Notes: generated from the letters alone by a model not told the origin. Counted from the stretch's first letter, positions 1-48,050 are shown. The stretch: DNA of 64,000 nt from Moorena producens (GCF_965240435.1 NZ_CBDEKO010000003.1); one strand, 5' to 3'. Numbers and translations are program-made.

Positions 1-375
1 TGTAGTAAAGCCAGAAACTAAATTCGCCTCAATGGTGTGAACATGATAACAAGCTTTAGCATCTGGGAATAAAGAGTAGATACTTTGATCAATGCTTGTT
101 TCAGCTCAAGGACGAGATTCAGGTGATGTTTTTTCTACCACCCTGCCATCAGTGGCTATGGGAATAAAGTCTTTGCTGCCTAGCTGCCCTTTATGGCATC
201 CACTCGCAGTAATCCAGAAGCTGCCATCGGGCTGTTTAGCAGAGAGGTTACCGGCTGTCCCCACCATCCAACCTAATTGATAGAAGTGACTAGCAGCACT
301 GATTAAGGTTGGTCTTGGATCAATAGCTGAACGTAATTGCTGGTCATTGCCGATTGAGGAGCCATGATTAACCAT
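1..375 (-). pseudogene. mtnB: Methylthioribulose-1-phosphate dehydratase (class II aldolase/adducin family), partial at the window edge, with an in-frame TGA at 106-108
   Basis: ORF 106..420 reads ...TAGNLSAKQPDGSFWITASGCHKG..., which matches the MtnB N-terminus (SGNLS, TASG). After the stop at 106-108 the same frame continues AETSIDQSIYSLFPDAKACYHVHTIEANLVSGF to position 1. That stretch matches the MtnB H-x-H region. The start is probably MVNHG at ~375, 4 nt after the mtnX stop. Confidence 0.6.
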
Positions 376-1024
376 TGTTCCACCGCTGGGATAGCTGTTG
401 TTGTACATCAAAAAAATCATCCCACGGAATGTAGGGCTTTTGGCGCTCCTCCAGGTATTTGCTGAGGCGATCGCGGGCGAATACTACCGGGGCTTTCAGG
501 CTCATATTAAAGTCCGTTACCGAATCTCCAATGGCGATCTGCTCTTGAGCTGGGTGTTGTGCCATAACCCGCACTTTAGACACAAGTTCTGTATCTCCTT
601 CAAACTCAGAGGTTACCTTTAGAAAATTACTGGTAGTTTCCACATCAACAGCATAAATAGCTGCTACCCGCTCAAGTAAGGATTTTTTCCCCGTGCTTCC
701 CTGGCTCAGAACCGTTTCCACCATGCACCGCAAACCACCGGAAACCACAATAAAAGGAACATTCTGAGTTTCAAGAAAGTCTAACAATTGCTCTAAACCA
801 GGCCGAATCGGTTTGGATTCGGCATAGGCAATAATGTCAGGATAGCTGGCTGAAGGAATTGACTCTAGCATCTGGCGCACACCTTCCCTTAGAGTCAGCT
901 TCATACTGTACAGCTGGGGCATAATTTGGGCGGACAACTCGGGAGCAAATTGTTTGAGCATGCCCACAAAGGTTTCAACGGCGGTAATGGTACCGTCGAA
1001 GTCGCAGAATACAACTCGATTCAC
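368..1024 (-). CDS. mtnX: HAD-superfamily phosphatase, 2-hydroxy-3-keto-5-methylthiopentenyl-1-phosphate phosphatase-like
   Basis: N-terminal DFDGTIT HAD motif I and a later GDSVTD motif. It sits between mtnW and mtnB as in Bacillus-type methionine-salvage clusters. Confidence 0.6.
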   Translation of the reverse strand: MNRVVFCDFDGTITAVETFVGMLKQFAPELSAQIMPQLYSMKLTLREGVRQMLESIPSASYPDIIAYAESKPIRPGLEQLLDFLETQNVPFIVVSGGLRCMVETVLSQGSTGKKSLLERVAAIYAVDVETTSNFLKVTSEFEGDTELVSKVRVMAQHPAQEQIAIGDSVTDFNMSLKAPVVFARDRLSKYLEERQKPYIPWDDFFDVQQQLSQRWNNG

Positions 1025-1275
1025 AATGGTATTTAGTCTAAGAGTGCTCAGTCCTGAGTAAGAACTGTCGCTGTTGATGATATGTTCACGATCAATAGTA
1101 TTACTATAGGCATTACTCTAGCATTTATCAAAAAGGTGAGGTGCTTAATACCTTGGGGGTGCGTGGGATTAGGTATTACTGTGTGATGATTACAGAGTAT
1201 GGTAAATAAATCAAAATGTACCCCATAATCATGATAAACACCATCTTGTCATTACCCCATAACCCGATTACCCGA

Positions 1276-2376
1276 TTACCTCCGAGATGAATGTATGGCT
1301 TCAAAAAATGCTTTAACGCCAGCAGCAGGACCATCGGGATGATCCATAATGCCAGTTCCAGCATTAAGAATAACCTCTTGTCCGTAATCTCCTACAACCT
1401 TAGGCACAATCCCGGCATGAATGCCAGCGGAGGGGATAGGAAATACATTACGCGATCGCAAACTATCTCGAATTCGCTTTTCCTCCTCTGGGTCAAAGGG
1501 TAAACTACCATAATGGGCGGGATATAGCACCGCATCTGCCCCACCATGAGCCATCAGGGTTCCCAACACCACTGAGTAAGCCATCCCGTGGTTAGGGGCT
1601 CCACAGAGTGCTCCTGCTAAGGCCGGATGGGCAAAAATCGGTACATTAATCTCTGGATCAGCAGCTAGGGCTTCTAGGACAGAGAAACCGTAGGTCAAGA
1701 CATTCAGCAGCAGGGCATTTGCACCTTCTTTAACCAAGGTATGAGCTTTCTCAAGCAATTTGTCAGCCGAACCAGTTACATTAACGGCATAGAGTACGGT
1801 GCGCCCAGTTTGCTGTTTTATTTCATCGAGTACCTTACGGCAGACTTCTAGACGTTTCAGGGTTGGTGCTATCTCCAAATCCCCCAGAATCTCATCATCT
1901 TTAATAATGTCAAGTCCAGCTCCAGCAACCTCTTGTAAAATTTTCCCATGGTCTTCCGCTGAGAGTCCCAACGCTGGCTTAAAAATTGCCATAATCAGGG
2001 GACGGTCAACTACTCCTAGTCTTTCCCGAATCCCGGTAATTCCGAATTTGGGATGCCTACCGTAGTGTTCTGGCAAGCGCACTGCCATGACTTTAGCTGG
2101 TCCTGCCATGGAGTATTTACCAAAAATCATGGTTAGTAGAGTAGGGATATCGTTTTCCACATTAGCTTCAGGAAAACGGATGGTAGCCAAACCAGAACCA
2201 TCAGGGTTAATGACACCTTGAACAACAGTACCAAGATGGGAGCGAAACACATTTTCGAGATGGGCAAAACGAGCATTCCAGGTGCCTGCGGTTTGCCCAA
2301 CAGCAATCACTTTCGCTTGTTTTTCGACATCAACACCGCGAGGAAAGCGGTAGTCAACTTCAATGGACATATTCAA
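1276..2376 (-). CDS. mtnW: RuBisCO-like protein (form IV RLP) / 2,3-diketo-5-methylthiopentyl-1-phosphate enolase
   Basis: 366 aa with the RuBisCO large-subunit core motif GAGLDIIKDDE (compare GGLDFTKDDE). It lacks a RuBisCO small-subunit partner and sits in the mtn cluster. It is intact. Confidence 0.8.
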   Translation of the reverse strand: MNMSIEVDYRFPRGVDVEKQAKVIAVGQTAGTWNARFAHLENVFRSHLGTVVQGVINPDGSGLATIRFPEANVENDIPTLLTMIFGKYSMAGPAKVMAVRLPEHYGRHPKFGITGIRERLGVVDRPLIMAIFKPALGLSAEDHGKILQEVAGAGLDIIKDDEILGDLEIAPTLKRLEVCRKVLDEIKQQTGRTVLYAVNVTGSADKLLEKAHTLVKEGANALLLNVLTYGFSVLEALAADPEINVPIFAHPALAGALCGAPNHGMAYSVVLGTLMAHGGADAVLYPAHYGSLPFDPEEEKRIRDSLRSRNVFPIPSAGIHAGIVPKVVGDYGQEVILNAGTGIMDHPDGPAAGVKAFFEAIHSSRR

Positions 2377-2398
2377 TAAGTTATGAACTGGGATATTC

Positions 2399-3398
2399 TC
2401 AAACAGCTACTAACGGCTTCATCCGAATTTCCGTACCCGTGTATACCGGAATCCAGCCTTCAGTAGTGATCAAGTAGCGCACAGCTTTAACCCGTCGTGA
2501 TGGTGTCAGATAAAACCAATGTTCAGTATTCGCTGGGACATTAATGTACTCCTGAGGCTGCACACTCAACTCCATTTGGCTGCCATCAGGACGTACAAAC
2601 CCAAAAACCCCAACTCCTGCAAATATGTAGCGCACTTCATCGTCAGTATGGTAGTGACAATCCGTGAAGTACCCCAACCTGCTTAGCTGAGGTTGGGGCA
2701 AACCATTCTCAGTTCAATCAGGGACGGTCTTATTCGTCTTCAGGGCTTCCCGCTTCATCCGCCAATGCCTCAACCAGCGAACTGGAATTGGTCTTACTCA
2801 GCGTCCACAGGCAGACATCCGCCTTCCGCAGACGTATAACTTTTACGACAGACTTACCATGGAATTACAGCTCAATGGCTAACCAGCTGGGGCAAGTCTC
2901 TTCCCTGAGCTCCGCTAGTACTTTGTATACCTAATAGGTCATTAACAACGCGCTTGATATTTAGACGTTTTTTTAGGTAGCCTTTTAGTCGGTCAGGCGG
3001 GTCAGCAACCATCTTCATTATAACCTGAATCCTTTTGAGTTGCAAGTTATCGTTTCGCTATCCATCCCCACCTTGGAAGAAGGTGGGGATGAATAGCGAA
3101 TTTTGTTTCCTTTGGAAAGGAGCTTATCAAGATTAGGTATGTCTGGGTAAAGAACGATTAAGTCACGGGATTGATAGCCAGCGGTTTGCTTAAGTTGTTC
3201 AAAGTAGCTATCTAAAGCTTTCAGTACTTTCTCCTTTTCAATATCACTGAGGGTGTCTTGCTCTAGAAGGCGGTGAATTTCTGGGTTGTCCCCTACAGAC
3301 CAGTGATTTAGCTGAATCTTCAGAGGCGCTAATTCTTGGGCAATATCACTTAGCTCGGTATAGGTTGTACCATCTTCAAGTCGCAAAACCGCCATCAT
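2399..3398 (-). pseudogene. mtnD: Acireductone dioxygenase (cupin), split into an N-terminal ORF (3018..3398) and a C-terminal ORF (2399..2701) by a ~440-bp insertion
   Basis: N-terminal ORF MAVLRLEDGTTYTELSDIAQELAPLKIQ...YPDIPNLDKLL parallels B. subtilis MtnD up to the LDELL position, then diverges and stops. The C-terminal ORF starts at TTG and carries the ARD metal motif HYHTDDEVRYIFAGVGVFGF plus the cupin C-terminus TEGWIPVY. Confidence 0.6.
2676..3116. mobile_element. MITE-like, hairpin-ended, non-coding insertion inside mtnD
   Basis: The sequence between the two mtnD homology blocks has no ORF. A perfect hairpin CATCCCCACCTT-cttcc-AAGGTGGGGATG lies near one end (3056-3084). A second hairpin CCCCAACCT-cagctaagc-AGGTTGGGG lies at the other (2668-2694). 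The boundaries are approximate. Confidence 0.35.
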
Positions 3399-3639
3399 GT
3401 ACCTCCTGTTGGCTGTTCGATCTCCAAAGCCCTATATTATAATATTAAGCATTCATCTAGGTCAACCCACACCAGCCATCCAAACAGTATTATTAGGTAT
3501 CAAAAGGCATAAAACCCTTCCATAAAGGCTGTTTTAGAATAAAGTTCGCCCAGTTTTCCTCAGAAAGGTTAACATAAATTAATATAAGAAGCTAAATTCT
3601 ATATTTGCCACATCCTCGAATCTATGGAGGTAACAACGA

Positions 3640-5481
3640 GTGAATAAAAAGTGGAGAAACGCAGGGCTGTATGCACTCCTAGCCATAGTGGTGATCGCCC
3701 TTGGTACAGCATTTTTGGACAAACCGTCCCCAAGTCGAGATACGTGGCGGTACGACCAGCTGATTAGCCAAGTCGAGAGCGGCAAGGTGGAAACCGTTAG
3801 AATCAGTGCTGACCGCAGTAAAGCGATCGCGATCGCTCAAGATGGTCGTCAGGTAGAGGTCAATCTCCCCAATGACCCACAACTAATCAACCTTCTGAAT
3901 AATAACGGTGTAGATATTTCAGTTCTACCCCAGAGTGATGAAGGCTTCTGGTTCAAGACCTTAAGCAGCTTCTTCTTCCCGATTCTGCTCTTGGTGGGAT
4001 TGTTTCTATTACTGCGGCGTGCCCAGAATGGCCCAGGTTCTCAAGCCATGAACTTTGGCAAGTCTAAGGCTAGAGTCCAAATGGAACCCCAAACTCAGGT
4101 AACCTTTGGGGATGTGGCAGGTATTGAGCAAGCCAAGCTAGAGCTTAACGAAGTAGTAGACTTCCTCAAAAATGCTGACCGCTTCACTGCTATTGGGGCT
4201 AAAATTCCCAAGGGAGTCCTGCTCGTGGGACCTCCAGGAACCGGTAAAACTCTCTTAGCTCGTGCAGTAGCTGGGGAAGCAGGTGTTCCGTTTTTCTCCA
4301 TCTCTGGTTCTGAGTTTGTCGAGATGTTCGTAGGGGTTGGTGCTTCTCGGGTGCGAGACCTATTTGAGCAAGCCAAAAACAATGCTCCGTGTATTGTATT
4401 CATTGATGAAATCGATGCTGTGGGACGTCAGCGGGGTGCCGGTTTAGGCGGTGGTAATGATGAACGGGAGCAAACCCTCAACCAGTTGCTGACTGAAATG
4501 GATGGGTTTGAAGGTAATACCGGTATTATCATTATTGCTGCTACCAACCGCCCAGATGTTCTTGATGCTGCCCTACTACGCCCTGGTCGTTTTGATCGAC
4601 AGGTAGTAGTAGACCGTCCTGATTATTCCGGACGTTTGGAAATTCTCAACGTTCATGCTCGTGGGAAAACCCTGGCCAAAGATGTGGATCTCGAGAAGAT
4701 TGCCCGTCGGACCCCTGGTTTCACCGGAGCAGATTTATCCAACTTGCTCAATGAAGCAGCAATTTTGGCAGCCCGTCGCAACTTAACCGAAATCTCTATG
4801 GATGAGGTGAATGATGCCATTGACCGGGTACTTGCAGGGCCAGAGAAGAAAGACCGGGTAATGAGCGAGAAACGCAAAACCCTCGTAGCGTTTCACGAAG
4901 CAGGTCACGCCCTTGTGGGTGCCTTAATGCCTGATTATGACCCAGTGCAGAAAATTAGCATTATTCCTCGGGGTCGTGCTGGTGGTTTGACTTGGTTCAC
5001 CCCTAGCGAAGACCGGATGGATTCAGGCATGTTTTCCCGTTCTTACCTGCAAAATCAGATGGCAGTGGCCTTAGGTGGTCGGATTGCTGAAGAAATTATC
5101 TTCGGTGAAGAAGAAGTGACCACAGGTGCTTCCAATGACTTGCAACAGGTGACTCGGGTGGCACGGCAGATGGTGATGCGCTATGGTATGAGCGATCGCC
5201 TTGGCCCAGTAGCCCTAGGACGGCAGAATGGCAGTATGTTCCTAGGTCGGGATATTGCCTCAGACCGGGATTTCTCAGATGCCACAGCATCAACCATTGA
5301 TGAAGAGGTTCGCAAGCTAGTTGATGAAGCCTACGAACGGGCTAAGAATGTAATTCTTGGCAATAAGCACATCCTCGATAAGCTTGCTGAAATGCTGATT
5401 GATAAAGAAACCGTAGATGCTGAGGAACTCCAAGAGATTCTAAGCACTAACGATGTCAAGATGGCTGCGATCGCTCTTTAA
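3640..5481 (+). CDS. ftsH: ATP-dependent zinc metalloprotease FtsH
   Basis: 613 aa with N-terminal TM helices, Walker A GPPGTGKT, the SRH region, the zinc motif HEAGHA and the FtsH C-terminal domain. It starts at GTG. Confidence 0.95.
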
Positions 5482-5737
5482 CACAAGGCGATTTGGGCAA
5501 TCACCTAGGTAAATACAATGGTGAATACAATAGCCTCTAGCTATTAATCATCCTTAACAGGATACAGCAACAGGACAGTGTAACTAAGCACTGTCCTGTA
5601 TTATTTTGAGATTAAATCTTAAACAAGCATAACGATATAATTATTTCTGTTAAAAATTCCATAAGCTAATTTAAATAATAAGTCAGGGGATCCTATAATC
5701 CGACTGATTTTATTTGTGATAGTATAATCAAACCAAA

Positions 5738-5818
5738 GCTAGGGGTGCCTGAGCAACCAGGCTGAGATTACACCCTTAGAACCTGAGTCCGGTTAATACC
5801 GGCGGAGGGAAGCTGTGA
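5738..5818 (+). promoter_or_regulatory. TPP (thiamine pyrophosphate) riboswitch, THI element
   Basis: AGGGGTGCCTGAGCAACCAGGCTGAGATTACACCCTTAGAACCTGAGTCCGGTTAATACCGGCGGAGGGAAG carries the THI-box hallmarks (GGGGTGCC, CTGAGA, ACCTGA-CCGG-TAATACC). It sits directly 5' of thiC. A TATAAT lies at 5723-5728. Confidence 0.85.
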
Positions 5819-7207
<1,389 letters not shown>

Positions 7208-33076: not shown

Positions 33077-33556
33077 TCAATTAATCGGTATCCACTGGGA
33101 AAACGTAGCCCCTTGACCACAATAGTTATTTTCCTCATCAATGAGATTCCAGACGATAACATCTGAAATCTGGAACCGTTTACCAGTGCTAGAAATGCGG
33201 ACACCTTGATAGTTGCTAATATAGCCCTGGCTTGTCACTTGGTTAAGCAGGCGTAAGCGCTCCTCCCTTTCCATTGGCTCAGCTGAATATTTCGAAGGCA
33301 TCTGAGTCAATTGGTTCCAATCCATTTCCCACAATTCTAAACCTTTCCGATTGCCATAGTTGTAAATGGGGTCTGATTCAGTGTTGTGAGAGAAGACGGC
33401 AAAGGGCGCTTCAAATAGTGCCTGTGCAATTTCGATAGGTGAGCCACTAGTATCGATTAGAGAACGCCCTGTCCAATGATGAAAGCTATTGATTAGACGT
33501 TGGCTCTGGCGAATTACTGCGTCTTGTTGCCAAGGAAATTGGATCTCAGTATTCAT
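33077..33556 (-). CDS. PAS-like / MEKHLA-like small sensor domain protein (tentative)
   Basis: 159 aa, called from overall impression only. It sits directly downstream of the tnpB-only IS. Confidence 0.3.
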   Translation of the reverse strand: MNTEIQFPWQQDAVIRQSQRLINSFHHWTGRSLIDTSGSPIEIAQALFEAPFAVFSHNTESDPIYNYGNRKGLELWEMDWNQLTQMPSKYSAEPMEREERLRLLNQVTSQGYISNYQGVRISSTGKRFQISDVIVWNLIDEENNYCGQGATFSQWIPIN

Positions 33557-33559
33557 CAG

Positions 33560-35160
33560 TTTATTATTGTGTACAGATTTATCACGCTGATGGAACTATA
33601 GTAATCGTGACGCTCCTACACTCTCCTAACGGGTGAGTGTAGGCTTCTAGCACTCCTTAGAGCTACTAGAACTTGCTTCAAGGTACTATTAGTTAGAGAA
33701 CTATCAACAACAGGATTCCCTCTACGCCGTTTTATAGTGGGGAACACGCCCAGCCCCACTCGTTTTAGGTTGATTGCGGCATTGATATCGCGATCGACCA
33801 TCAGCATTTCTTGCTCATCCCAATACTCGCGGATAGAGCAGTCAGTAAATACAAACTCGTCTCGATAGCTCAACAGTTGAGAGGTATAGACAGGGTTACA
33901 CTTTTTCGTTACTGCTCCAGCTTTTCCAGCTATGTAGGCCAGTATCTCAAAGAACTGTCCAAACCCTGCATCCGACCAAGACTTGTTTAATCCCGATTTT
34001 GCGGACTGTCCATTAGGCAAATATCCACCATTAGTATCTGGCTTGGGTTTATTTCGTTTCTTTAAACCAGAAAGGTTCAAATTTTCATAATAGAAAACTT
34101 TTTTTCCGGTTCTAACCAGGAGATGAGCTGTTTTATAGGCATGATCCTTTCGGCTCCTAGCGATCCGTTGATGTATTCTCCCTTCACGCGATTGCAGCTT
34201 CCTCCGAGCTTTACTCCCTTTTTTTCTGGCATTCTTTTTGGTTTCTACCTTTTTGATAACAGCCTGATTTTTGCGGTAAGACTTAAGTGAGGGTAGCTTA
34301 GTATTTTCAGATGTCGCCAGATAATCATCTCCGTACAGGACTGCATCCAATCCCATGGTATTATTCCAAGTAGGAGTAACACTTTCTGGTTTAAAAGTTG
34401 GGACTGTAGGATCCTCTAAACATAAGGTCGTGTACCAACCATCGGCTTTTTTGGTTATTAGGATATTTTTGAGTTTAAACCCGTCAGGTAACGGACGATG
34501 GAGTCGGACTTTAACCCACCCTTTGAGCTTTGTTATCTTCAGCCATATCCATTTATTCTCGATTCTGGCTACAGTAAAAGAGCCTTTACCTTCTATTTTT
34601 AAAGTTCTGTATCTAGCTTGATTTTTGAATCGAGGTTTTCCGCTACGAGTACCCGTTTTATCGCCCTTGATGAATCGATTGAAAGCTAGGTCTGCTCTTT
34701 TACATACGTCCTGTAAAGTATTTGCCGGAACTCGGGTAAAGTCCAGCAATTCCCATGAGTGGACAACTGTTACCAAATCTTTTTTCCAGATTGGCAGAAG
34801 CTTTTTTTGACTAAAGTAACTGGGATTATCTCTAAGCTCTGGGAGGTAAGTAATCAACGGACAAGAATTAACACCAGTACGGTTTTCATTCCACCACCGC
34901 CAGCGATCGCCTAACTGCCAGTTATACCAGTAACGACAAATTCGTAGCCAATCGTTTAGTTGTAATTTTTGTTGAGTAGTTGGATCAGCTCGGTATTGGT
35001 AGTTGAGCAGTATAACAATCACCTCTTGGCTTTTATTGCGCTTTCATATATATAGATAATAACAATCTTTCCGAAAAGTTTCAGCATCTGTGTTTACTCC
35101 CATAAAAAGCTTTTATGATTTACTTATGCCCGCGTTCCAGCTGAACTCCTGCAACTGCTT
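33560..35160 (-). mobile_element. IS200/IS605-family non-autonomous element (tnpB only, no tnpA)
   Basis: A single TnpB ORF wedged between the CHAT gene stop (35163) and the start of the 159-aa gene (33556). A hairpin CCTACACTC-tcctaacgg-GTGAGTGTAGG sits at the tnpB stop, which is a typical omega-RNA / right-end position. Confidence 0.65.
33616..35022 (-). CDS. tnpB: TnpB (IS200/IS605 OrfB, RuvC-like RNA-guided nuclease family)
   Basis: 468 aa. RuvC-I (GLDAVLY), RuvC-II (YYENLN) and RuvC-III (DRDINAAINL) are present. The zinc-ribbon position reads TSQLLSYRDEFVFTDCSIREY, so the canonical CxxC...CxxC is lost. Confidence 0.85.
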   Translation of the reverse strand: MIVILLNYQYRADPTTQQKLQLNDWLRICRYWYNWQLGDRWRWWNENRTGVNSCPLITYLPELRDNPSYFSQKKLLPIWKKDLVTVVHSWELLDFTRVPANTLQDVCKRADLAFNRFIKGDKTGTRSGKPRFKNQARYRTLKIEGKGSFTVARIENKWIWLKITKLKGWVKVRLHRPLPDGFKLKNILITKKADGWYTTLCLEDPTVPTFKPESVTPTWNNTMGLDAVLYGDDYLATSENTKLPSLKSYRKNQAVIKKVETKKNARKKGSKARRKLQSREGRIHQRIARSRKDHAYKTAHLLVRTGKKVFYYENLNLSGLKKRNKPKPDTNGGYLPNGQSAKSGLNKSWSDAGFGQFFEILAYIAGKAGAVTKKCNPVYTSQLLSYRDEFVFTDCSIREYWDEQEMLMVDRDINAAINLKRVGLGVFPTIKRRRGNPVVDSSLTNSTLKQVLVALRSARSLHSPVRRV

Positions 35161-46439: not shown

Positions 46440-48050
46440 TCACTTCGTTGATCAATCCAGTCATGAAGCTTCCACCACCTGGCTATCGCCGTTCGCGTAG
46501 CGTGGCGATAGCCAGGTGGTGGTGTCTTATACTAACTTATAACTACCCCTAGTCCATAAGTCACACAAGCAAGCCCAGCTTCTAGGCGGTCGTCGAGATC
46601 TTTTGCTGGAACGACCCTCACTGTCATTTCTGCGAGTGAGTTTAAACACACCTCTAGCACCGATGTTGTAAGCGCCGTTTAAGTCTGCATTAAACCGCTT
46701 ACCTGAAGGGAAGGTTGCCAAAGAGTATTTTTTAGAATTTCTCTTAACCGTACCAGAGCCATCAAAAGCCAATTTTGAAGTATAAGCCGCAACGACTTCT
46801 ATCACTTTTCCACCCAATTCAGCCCATTTCATTTCTGTGAAGTCGCGGATTTTTGCCTTGAGCCATCCGTGGAATCTTTGTTTTAAATTAGACCGCTTTC
46901 GTCCACCTTTTGGCTTCCACCCTTTAAGATTCTCGAATACAATGGCTTCCGAGTTGAACTTTTCAGCAATTTCAACAATCCCCTTGGAAACAATATGGCC
47001 AATTTGGTTATTGATTCTTTGGCATTTTTGATAAGTTTTGGAGCAAAAACCTTTATGTAGTTTTCCTCCTTTTCCCATCGTCTTCGATGCTCTTGCTGAT
47101 ACGGACTTTAGTCGTTTGTCCCTGCGGTCTATGTCTCTTCCAAGATGAATAAAATCACGATGGATTACAGTGCCACTATGGGTTACAACTGCTACGGTAG
47201 CGGTAGTATTAATCCCTAAATCTACCGCAGTTATGTTAGCCTCTGGCTTGCGTTTTTCTGGTTTGCAAGTAAACGGAACAGACAGATGACAGTACCTATC
47301 GTTAAAAATCAACGAAGGGGACATCATTTTGTTTGTAGCTATCTTATGACGCTCTCTTAGTCCAGTTATTTGAACTGTAGTCCAAACCCAATCCTTGCCG
47401 TTAAAAACTTTGATTTCGACTTGATCAAAGCCATGTAGTTTATAGCATTGACCCTTGTACAGAGCTGGATAGCAGCCAGTATCAGCGTTTAACCTTGGTG
47501 GCTTGCTATCTTTTCTTTTTCGGACACCAGACTGCCATTCACGGTATCGAGTCACATAACTACTAACCTGCCCAGCGGCAAAGGCGATTGCTGATCGGCG
47601 ATAATAACTGGGAAATTTATAAAAAGCTTTATTGAATTGAGGGTATTTAATTAAGGCTCGCTTGGCCGTCTTATGCATCAGACGCTCGACAGCAGGAGTT
47701 AACTGATCTGCTGTTAAACAACCTAACTCAGACCAATGAGTGTAAATCACACCAAGCAAGTACCGACAAGCGCGGCGATAAACCTTAACCGTTTCCCCAA
47801 ATAGTAGTTTTTGCTCGGAAGTTGGGTTAAGTCGCCACTTGTCTGTTCTTATGACCTTGGTCGGTGTTTTCACGCTTTCTAATAAACTCGTTTATAGTTA
47901 ATATTTTAGCTCACAAAAGGTAATACGGCAATCAAGTAATTAATGTTCCAGGTTTTAAAGTTGGTATCAGCGTGGAGTAACCCCCACCTGAACCTTCGCG
48001 CAGCGTGGCCGTAGGCCAGGTGGGGGAATGCGTCTCACGGCTTGTTCAAG
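46440..48050 (-). mobile_element. IS200/IS605-family non-autonomous element (tnpB only), with subterminal hairpins at both ends
   Basis: Right-end hairpin CACCACCTGGCTATCGCC-gttcgcgtagcgt-GGCGATAGCCAGGTGGTG at 46462-46512. Left-end hairpin CCCCCACCTG...CAGGTGGGGG with a similar TTCGCGCAGCGTGGC loop at 47978-48030. Confidence 0.7.
46527..47873 (-). CDS. tnpB: TnpB (IS200/IS605 OrfB family)
   Basis: 448 aa. RuvC-I AVDLGI, RuvC-II IVFENL, RuvC-III NADLNGAYNIG. The zinc-finger position (YTSKLAFDGSGTVKRN...SLATFPSGKRF) has no cysteines. Confidence 0.85.
   Translation of the reverse strand: MKTPTKVIRTDKWRLNPTSEQKLLFGETVKVYRRACRYLLGVIYTHWSELGCLTADQLTPAVERLMHKTAKRALIKYPQFNKAFYKFPSYYRRSAIAFAAGQVSSYVTRYREWQSGVRKRKDSKPPRLNADTGCYPALYKGQCYKLHGFDQVEIKVFNGKDWVWTTVQITGLRERHKIATNKMMSPSLIFNDRYCHLSVPFTCKPEKRKPEANITAVDLGINTTATVAVVTHSGTVIHRDFIHLGRDIDRRDKRLKSVSARASKTMGKGGKLHKGFCSKTYQKCQRINNQIGHIVSKGIVEIAEKFNSEAIVFENLKGWKPKGGRKRSNLKQRFHGWLKAKIRDFTEMKWAELGGKVIEVVAAYTSKLAFDGSGTVKRNSKKYSLATFPSGKRFNADLNGAYNIGARGVFKLTRRNDSEGRSSKRSRRPPRSWACLCDLWTRGSYKLV

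Follow-up and report, generated by a model that had tools for sequence, protein, structure and literature searches.

A spared RuBisCO-like gene and a gene-less element resembling ISAam1 in an apparently decaying methionine-salvage operon of Moorena

Organization of the mtn locus

The window analysed here, a stretch of 64,000 nucleotides from Moorena producens (NZ_CBDEKO010000003.1), carries in positions 1-3398 a methionine-salvage operon on the minus strand, in the order mtnD, mtnW, mtnX, mtnB, with an in-frame stop codon in mtnB, a 442-bp insert in mtnD, and full-length genes for a RuBisCO-like protein (mtnW) and a HAD-IB phosphatase (mtnX). The open reading frame (ORF) listing and the profile searches agree on this order, and both the order and the integrity of mtnW and mtnX with their catalytic motifs are as claimed in the original prediction. 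By a scan that used one genome per species, the window was assigned to Moorena, with 95-98% identity to M. bouillonii PNG and M. producens 3L. Its MtnW shares 98% identity with the proteins of M. bouillonii PNG (L003), M. producens 3L (L002) and two Moorena metagenome-assembled genomes (MAGs; L001 and L004), and its DNA is 92-97% identical to these four loci, which together with the window form the five-genome Moorena comparison used below. The wider set of cyanobacterial mtnW loci consists of the best 80 of 254 matches.

MtnW matches PF00016 with 125 bits and keeps the metal/carbamate motif KDDE (DIIKDDE). Among the NCBIfam models it matches DK-MTP-1-P enolase best, with scores under the cut-offs, being 365.7 bits against 409 for NF007095 (E = 2.2e-109) and 305.3 against 513.6 bits for TIGR03332. 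The top PDB match is 4nas (3.2e-80), deposited as ribulose-bisphosphate carboxylase; next come 2zvi and 2oek, which are characterised enolases (1e-75 to 6e-77). MtnX keeps the motifs DFDGT and GDSVTD and scores over the cut-off of 45 with the HAD-IB model TIGR01488 (62.1 bits); its best NCBIfam models are NF007103 (1.6e-37) and TIGR03333, with equivalog scores of 129 against a cut-off of 292 and 115 against 303, respectively. MtnB matches Pfam Aldolase_II (1.7e-21, 77 bits), its best NCBIfam model is the MtnB model TIGR03328, and an alternative upstream ATG lies at 420. The C-terminal fragment of MtnD scores 60.5 bits with PF03079 (cut-off 27). As MtnW, MtnX and MtnB all stay below the NCBI equivalog cut-offs, they are best called MtnW-, MtnX- and MtnB-like, the enolase activity of the RuBisCO-like protein being a probable prediction.

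Related systems are the mtnWXBD (ykrWXYZ) operon of Bacillus subtilis and the operon of the RuBisCO-like protein of Microcystis, which is an enolase. The Moorena locus has in common with them a RuBisCO-like (enolase) gene, a HAD phosphatase, a class II aldolase-type dehydratase and an ARD dioxygenase. It differs in the order D-W-X-B, in that two of its genes are pseudogenes, and in the RuBisCO-like protein itself, which has 366 amino acids instead of ~407 and scores under the NCBIfam equivalog cut-offs.

The spacer of 250 bp between mtnW and mtnX (1025-1275), also extant in L001 and L003, has a promoter-like site at 1131..1103, and mtnX-mtnB may have a promoter of their own within it.

Table 1. 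Features of the mtn locus, of the element inserted in mtnD and of the tnpB genes in the window
Feature	Coordinates	Strand	Remarks
mtnD, interrupted	3398..2399	-	ARD cupin match in C-terminal part
mtnD 5' fragment, codons 1-96	3111..3398	-	
mtnD 3' fragment, cupin part with HxH..E motif	2399..2663	-	Pfam ARD 2.9e-16
mtnW, RuBisCO-like protein, full-length ORF, probable DK-MTP-1-P enolase	1276..2376	-	Pfam RuBisCO_large; ATG at 2370
mtnX, HAD-IB phosphatase, full-length ORF	368..1024	-	best match MtnX
mtnB pseudogene (methylthioribulose-1-P dehydratase)	1..375	-	N-terminal 125 codons visible; runs off window at base 1
Premature stop TGA replacing TCA (Ser90) in mtnB	106..108	-	translation and relatives
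Candidate operon promoter, TTGACC-18 nt-TATAAT, 11/12 matches	3436..3465	-	upstream of mtnD; consensus match only
ORF-less mobile element, 442 bp, IS200/IS605-type, ISAam1-like, PATE-like (as assigned from sequence features)	2664..3105	-	absent from L001-L004
Left-end hairpin, 21-bp stem, core CCCCACC/GGTGGGG	3053..3099	-	
Right end: hairpin CCCCAACCT-loop-AGGTTGGGG (2698..2672), TAC, terminal TTCAC (2668..2664)	2664..2703	-	invariant in all copies
Transposon-adjacent motif position	3106..3110	-	GGAAA here; four relatives have TTTAA in their empty sites
Promoter within element, TTGCAA-17 nt-TATAAT	3017..3045	-	
Conserved structured RNA, ~345 nt, read towards mtnW	2664..3010	-	nhmmer match 3010..2664
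tnpB	33616..35022	-	HTH_OrfB_IS605, OrfB_IS605, Cas12f1-like TNB; no tnpA nearby
tnpB	46527..47873	-	HTH_OrfB_IS605, OrfB_IS605, Cas12f1-like TNB; no tnpA nearby

Lesions in mtnB and mtnD

MtnB matches the class II aldolase fold but has no open frame. Its minus-strand frame reads ...SPESRP-stop-AETSI..., with MtnB homology on both sides of the in-frame TGA at codon 90, as had been predicted. M. producens 3L and M. bouillonii PNG carry TCA (Ser) at this position and read ESRPSAETS, and each of the 22 MtnB homologues taken from the loci has Ser90. Two further sites that are invariant among the 22 homologues are changed in the window (R72P and H96D), and these, with the six nonsynonymous changes counted below, make a lone base-calling error an insufficient explanation. 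We propose that mtnB was probably killed by the TCA-to-TGA change at the invariant serine and would then have acquired further damaging substitutions.

The orthologous loci of the related strains bear out the second predicted lesion, the splitting of mtnD by an insert of about 440 bp. In L001-L004 the 3' fragment of mtnD is joined to the 5' fragment without a break, and the loci read ...TCCAAATTTAAGGATTGTCAC... / ...CTCCTTTCCAAATTTAAGGATTGTCACTACCAT... uninterrupted. The net gain of the window is 442 bp (2664..3105), within which there are stops in all frames, and mtnD is not one continuous frame; in addition, the bases at 3106..3110 are changed from TTTAA to GGAAA.

Substitutions on the lineage of the window separate the two damaged genes from the two full-length ones. 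The branch of the window has 2 synonymous and 9 nonsynonymous changes in mtnD (junction codons excluded) and 2 and 6, respectively, in mtnB (108 codons compared), against 3 and 0 in mtnW, 5 and 2 in mtnX, and 2 and 0 in the neighbouring ftsH. The difference between mtnD plus mtnB (4 synonymous, 15 nonsynonymous) and mtnW plus mtnX (8 and 2) has a Fisher p of 0.0045, and that between mtnD and mtnW a p of 0.027. The changes in MtnD include T131S, where 32 of 33 homologues have Thr, and also F162L, at a Phe common to all 33. mtnD and mtnB evolve without constraint, and mtnW and mtnX are constrained. The suggestion of a recent pathway inactivation is thus upheld as to the decay of the operon with the RuBisCO-like protein spared; that the inactivation was recent is not clear, because mtnD and mtnB already hold 15 nonsynonymous changes.

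Erosion of the operon in other Moorena genomes

With the intact D-W-X-B operon of M. bouillonii PNG (L003) as the reference, L001 has a deletion of 610 bp that removed mtnB, L002 one of 848 bp that removed mtnX, and L004 one of 1149 bp that removed mtnX and most of mtnB. Including the two of the window there are five independent lesions in four of the five Moorena genomes, none of them in mtnW; such a fivefold sparing has a probability of ~0.1 by gene length alone and is only suggestive. mtnW is intact in all five genomes, with a pairwise dN/dS of 0.05-0.13 in all comparisons, strains with a broken pathway included, while the dN/dS of mtnX is 0.15-0.19. Accordingly, of the earlier claim that the RuBisCO-like protein and the phosphatase are both retained, only the part on mtnW holds throughout, since two of the five genomes have a deletion of mtnX. 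Most simply, Moorena would be able to do without the classical pathway, with the RuBisCO-like protein keeping a selected function. From this we infer a role of this protein that is independent of MtnB and MtnD, that is, a re-purposing.

In the wider locus set, two separate mtnW loci were found per genome in a Caldora MAG (L016/L019) and in Mastigocoleus testarum BC008 (L034/L037), which points to paralogous RuBisCO-like protein operons in some cyanobacteria.

Gene decay and damage by insertion sequences are in themselves ordinary. The repeated sparing of the RuBisCO-like gene amounts to a natural experiment, which suggests that the enzyme is useful without its pathway neighbours and bears on the long-running question of RuBisCO-like protein function. 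A pathway-independent role, if true, would explain why the RuBisCO-like protein alone survives repeated decay of the operon.

The insert in mtnD belongs to a family of elements

The description of the insert as non-coding, given in the original prediction, stands insofar as there is no protein gene in it; it does carry a promoter and a conserved structured RNA. Its six-frame translations found no homologue among 5.8 billion proteins, so that a hidden or decayed gene is not present, and tblastn with the ISAam1 TnpB as the query detected no remnant inside the element. The insert had no match in plasmid or phage collections. Scans of positions 1-4000 and of the insert alone against Rfam matched no family, giving only hairpin-type chance matches.

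A metagenome scan with the right (3') hairpin as the pattern returned 12 contigs, 11 of which are homologous to the insert over 70-420 nt with 72-85% identity; the same type of scan with the left hairpin gave zero matches. The copies stand in varied contexts, mostly intergenic, on cyanobacterial metagenome contigs, the sole recognised neighbour being a cyanobacterial psbB (L091). In every copy the similarity stops directly after ...GGTTGGGGTACTTCAC, which makes TTCAC the terminus of the element and gives 2664..3105 as the extent of the copy in the window. Across 12 of 12 loci this terminal TTCAC does not vary. The left flank of the six full copies is TTTAA in four (L085, L088, L090 and L092), ATTAA in L091 and GGAAA in the window. 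The left-end hairpin is conserved as CCCCACCG..CGGTGGGG in L085, L088 and L090-L092, and its form, CCCCACC(G/T)..loop..GGTGGGG, resembles the right-end CCCCAACCT...AGGTTGGGG, both being on the minus strand.

Some loci hold variants of the element. L084 (883-940) and L087 (4584-4647) each have a solo right-end hairpin with TACTTCAC and lack the remainder of the element, and in the solo copy of L084 the loop is inverted with the orientation of the flanks kept. L082 and L089 represent a subfamily with extra hairpins inside the RNA (e.g., GTTCGCGTAAGCGTCTCCCCTTGGGAGAAG) and a differing 5' region; in L089 an IS630-like transposase fragment lies immediately upstream of the element copy.

The insertion site

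The empty mtnD site reads TCCAAA-TTTAA/GGATTG, with the TTTAA exactly where the left end of the element now sits. Comparison of the filled site with the four empty ones revealed neither duplicated target bases nor terminal inverted repeats. Because TTCAC and TTTAA are, by accident, equal in length, removal of 2669-3110 restores an open mtnD frame. We assigned TTCAC to the element from the family alignment, and mtnD codons 97-98 were left out of the substitution counts.

A perfect mini-hairpin, TTTCC-AAA-GGAAA (3118..3106), lies at the left junction. The 5' arm of the left-end hairpin of the window is a near-exact reverse complement of its 3' arm (20/21), and the other copies have an internal loop. 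As a speculation, fold-back repair at the left junction after the insertion could give rise to both the mini-hairpin and the near-palindrome. The copy in the window has probably lost the motif that is required for excision.

Promoter and structured RNA of the element

The internal promoter faces mtnW, and the other copies have a conserved extended -10 (TGnTAnAAT) at the equivalent place, followed by ~320-345 nt of conserved sequence. The insert folds well (z = -3.9). RNAalifold gave 52 pairs on the RNA, 98% of the cells being paired, and 16 of the pairs show compensatory changes, compared with 8.0 +/- 1.8 in column shuffles (none of 500 reaches 16) and 1-3 in slid controls; as the same eight sequences served both to derive the structure and to test it, this contrast is somewhat inflated. 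The RNA is not matched by any Rfam family. No terminator was found after the right end of the element.

Relation to IS200/IS605 elements, ISAam1 and PATEs

Members of the IS200/IS605 family insert as single strands ("peel and paste") 3' of a short motif and have subterminal hairpins and a fixed right-edge motif. The element in mtnD has no terminal inverted repeats, causes no target duplication and carries similar subterminal hairpins on the same strand, as is characteristic of this family. ISAam1 of Acaryochloris marina has a TnpB that is reported to use TTTAA as the transposon-adjacent motif (PMC11224200), and its reRNA ends with GAAGCCCCCACCTC..AGCGAAGC..AGGTGGTGGGAGCATGTCAC, the published scaffold end being ...GAGAAGCCCCCACCTCTAAGCGAAGCGTAGGTGGTGGGAGCATGTCAC (PMC11224200 Table S1). 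The family found here ends ...GGAAGCCCCAACCTCAGCGAAGCAGGTTGGGGTACTTCAC. A local alignment of the right end of the family with the ISAam1 reRNA scores 34, compared with 17.1 +/- 2.3 for shuffles (0 of 2000 as high); the copy in the window, whose loop is more diverged, scores 24, a value reached by 24 of 2000 shuffles.

The insert and its family resemble ISAam1 in the TTTAA that the empty mtnD site and most of the full copies have next to the left end, in the terminal hairpin GAAGCCCC(C/A)ACCT...AGCGAAGC...AGGT(G)G(T)GGG with ...TCAC after it as the right edge, and in the position of the guide in the flanking DNA, which for the insert is predicted from geometry. It differs from ISAam1 in having no tnpB and a promoter of its own, in the terminal motif (TTCAC instead of GTCAC), and in the 5' ~270 nt of the RNA, which show no relation to that part of the ISAam1 reRNA that overlaps tnpB. 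We conclude that the insert looks like a non-autonomous, ISAam1-like element of the IS200/IS605 type.

PATEs are gene-less derivatives of IS200/IS605 elements that often still encode an omega RNA needing TnpB in trans (PMC10055086). Similar to the PATEs of Geobacillus stearothermophilus and Haloquadratum, the element is ORF-less, has IS605-like hairpin ends, leaves no target duplication and has a putative omega-like RNA; in contrast to the described PATEs, this family is cyanobacterial, with a conserved extended -10 and a long RNA (~345 nt) that has covariation support. The IStrons of Clostridia (bioRxiv 10.1101/2023.11.20.567912) are likewise IS605-type elements with a structured RNA inside a gene; they combine a group I intron with IS200/IS605, whereas no group I core was detected in the insert and its host gene is under relaxed selection, so that rescue of mtnD by splicing is not expected.

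Two tnpB genes are located in the window (Table 1), with end hairpins comparable to those of the insert. The first (33616..35022) ends ...GGAGCGTCAC, with the end hairpin GAAGCCTACACTC-loop-GAGTGTAGGAGCGTCAC. For the second (46527..47873), the hairpin at the left end, TTCCCCCACCTG...CAGGTGGGGG, is like that of the insert, and its end hairpins are CCCCCACCTG/CAGGTGGGGG and CCACCACCTGG/CCAGGTGGTGG. A TnpB element in L017 ends ...GGGAGAATGTCAC. The two tnpB genes of the window are possible trans partners of the RNA of the insert.

We propose that mtnD was split by the transposition of this 442-bp element without a protein gene, which would have entered in single-stranded form precisely 3' of TTTAA with TnpA supplied in trans. 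Transcription from the internal promoter would yield an RNA whose scaffold closes with the hairpin and TTCAC and which runs on past TTCAC into GGATTGTCACTACC of the flanking mtnD, in which case the start of the mtnD 3' fragment would serve as the guide. GGATTGTCACTACC is the exact sequence that follows TTTAA in the uninterrupted mtnD alleles, and this identity of the two flanks follows the homing-guide logic of TnpB. TTTAA followed by GGATTGTCACTACCATACTG is the predicted guide target, and a TnpB may use the RNA as its omega/reRNA guide. Transcription from the element promoter might also read through into mtnW-mtnX.

Assessment of the interpretation and its alternatives

Altogether, we interpret the locus as a decaying salvage operon in which mtnB and mtnD are true pseudogenes, mtnD having been hit by an ISAam1-type element with its own promoter and RNA, and estimate the probability of this interpretation at about 0.75. 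The broader combination, in which the element stands for a free-living family of guide RNAs that borrows TnpA and TnpB and the Moorena RuBisCO-like protein is independent of the classical salvage steps, is put forward tentatively and considered rather unlikely. In such a family the sole cargo would be the self-promoted, ~345-nt omega-like RNA, with a scaffold that for the most part does not resemble known guides of TnpB.

Several observations weigh against this interpretation. The substitution counts are small, yet all go in the same direction. The TGA of mtnB by itself could be a base-calling error, and a second mtnB or mtnD could exist elsewhere in the genome. As to the element, blastn and nhmmer found no other copy of the insert within the 64-kb window or the 80 cyanobacterial mtnW loci; an autonomous relative with the same ends and a tnpA or tnpB was not found, nor was there a tnpA in the window or the loci. 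In the window, GGAAA stands in place of TTTAA beside the left end. The 5' ~270 nt of the RNA have no counterpart in the ISAam1 reRNA, and this length exceeds the usual TnpB guide scaffolds. Finally, the proposed membership in IS200/IS605 is drawn from the architecture and from a likeness of ~40 nt to one published guide RNA.

That the insert could be a self-splicing intron (group I or II), with mtnD functional after splicing, would agree with the open frame obtained by removing 2669-3110, with the stable fold (z = -3.9) and with L081, in which a real group II intron is next to one of the copies. The restored frame is, as mentioned, an accident of equal lengths, and none of the group I and II models of Rfam matches the insert at E <= 1, nor at E <= 10 when the insert is scanned by itself, though the same library detected a true group II domain V/VI in L081, outside the part common with the insert. 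Moreover, the insert ends C...TTCAC instead of GUGYG...AY, and without the 5' exon U and terminal G. A conserved promoter belongs to the element itself, whose other copies lie mostly between genes, and mtnD has 9 nonsynonymous to 2 synonymous changes on the lineage, an invariant Phe among them. We therefore rejected the intron and consider it very improbable. Similarly improbable is that the lesions are artefacts of sequencing or assembly and that the living strain has an undamaged operon. The single base of the TGA could be checked only with reads, which leaves room for this explanation; however, the insert belongs to a natural family of elements and lies at the target motif of that family, R72P and H96D affect invariant sites of MtnB, mtnD has an excess of nonsynonymous changes, and three other assemblies carry independent lesions of the same operon. 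Decoding of the TGA at 106-108, as selenocysteine or by read-through, with MtnB made at full length, has a practically negligible chance. The TGA is in frame and at a conserved position within the PSxE segment of the class II aldolase, but all 22 homologues have Ser there, close relatives included, and the codon is one base away from theirs; nothing seen pointed to a selenocysteine system or insertion element, and other invariant residues of MtnB are lost as well. The Ser in the relatives led us to rule out the selenocysteine reading.

The possibility that this copy of the operon is redundant, a second mtnB and mtnD or another salvage route elsewhere in Moorena keeping the pathway alive, is unlikely. 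The paired mtnW loci within the single Caldora and Mastigocoleus genomes speak for it, as does the fact that the lost genes vary between strains and that selection on mtnW persists. Each Moorena genome has, in turn, one locus among the best 80 of 254 matches, which is not a full test. We are more doubtful about an adaptive insertion, in which the element would act mainly as a mobile promoter that uncouples mtnW-mtnX from the old control of the operon. The promoter at 3045..3017 is directed towards mtnW with no terminator beyond the right end, and in L082 and L086 the element likewise faces the next gene; in L087, however, it is directed at the end of a convergent gene, and the candidate original promoter at 3465..3436 is still present in the window. 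The insert adds to the cyanobacterial repertoire a gene-less IS605-type family with a long, promoter-driven structured RNA that is not in Rfam, and the matching empty alleles make it a clean case for how guide RNAs of TnpB persist without the nuclease gene.

Neighbouring features and minor observations

The L081 contig (1634 nt) includes a group II reverse transcriptase ORF, and the domain V/VI (RF00029, 56.6 bits) ends ~130 nt upstream of the element RNA. The identity of this intron with the element was rejected, as this distance makes it a neighbour; it may be there by chance, or it may have targeted the upstream hairpin of the element.

Immediately downstream of the first tnpB gene, an ORF at 33077-33556 (minus strand) encodes a full MEKHLA domain (4.3e-59). 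A TPP riboswitch (Rfam RF00059, 71.7 bits) is located at 5731-5827 on the plus strand, directly upstream of a thiC-like ORF (5834..7207).

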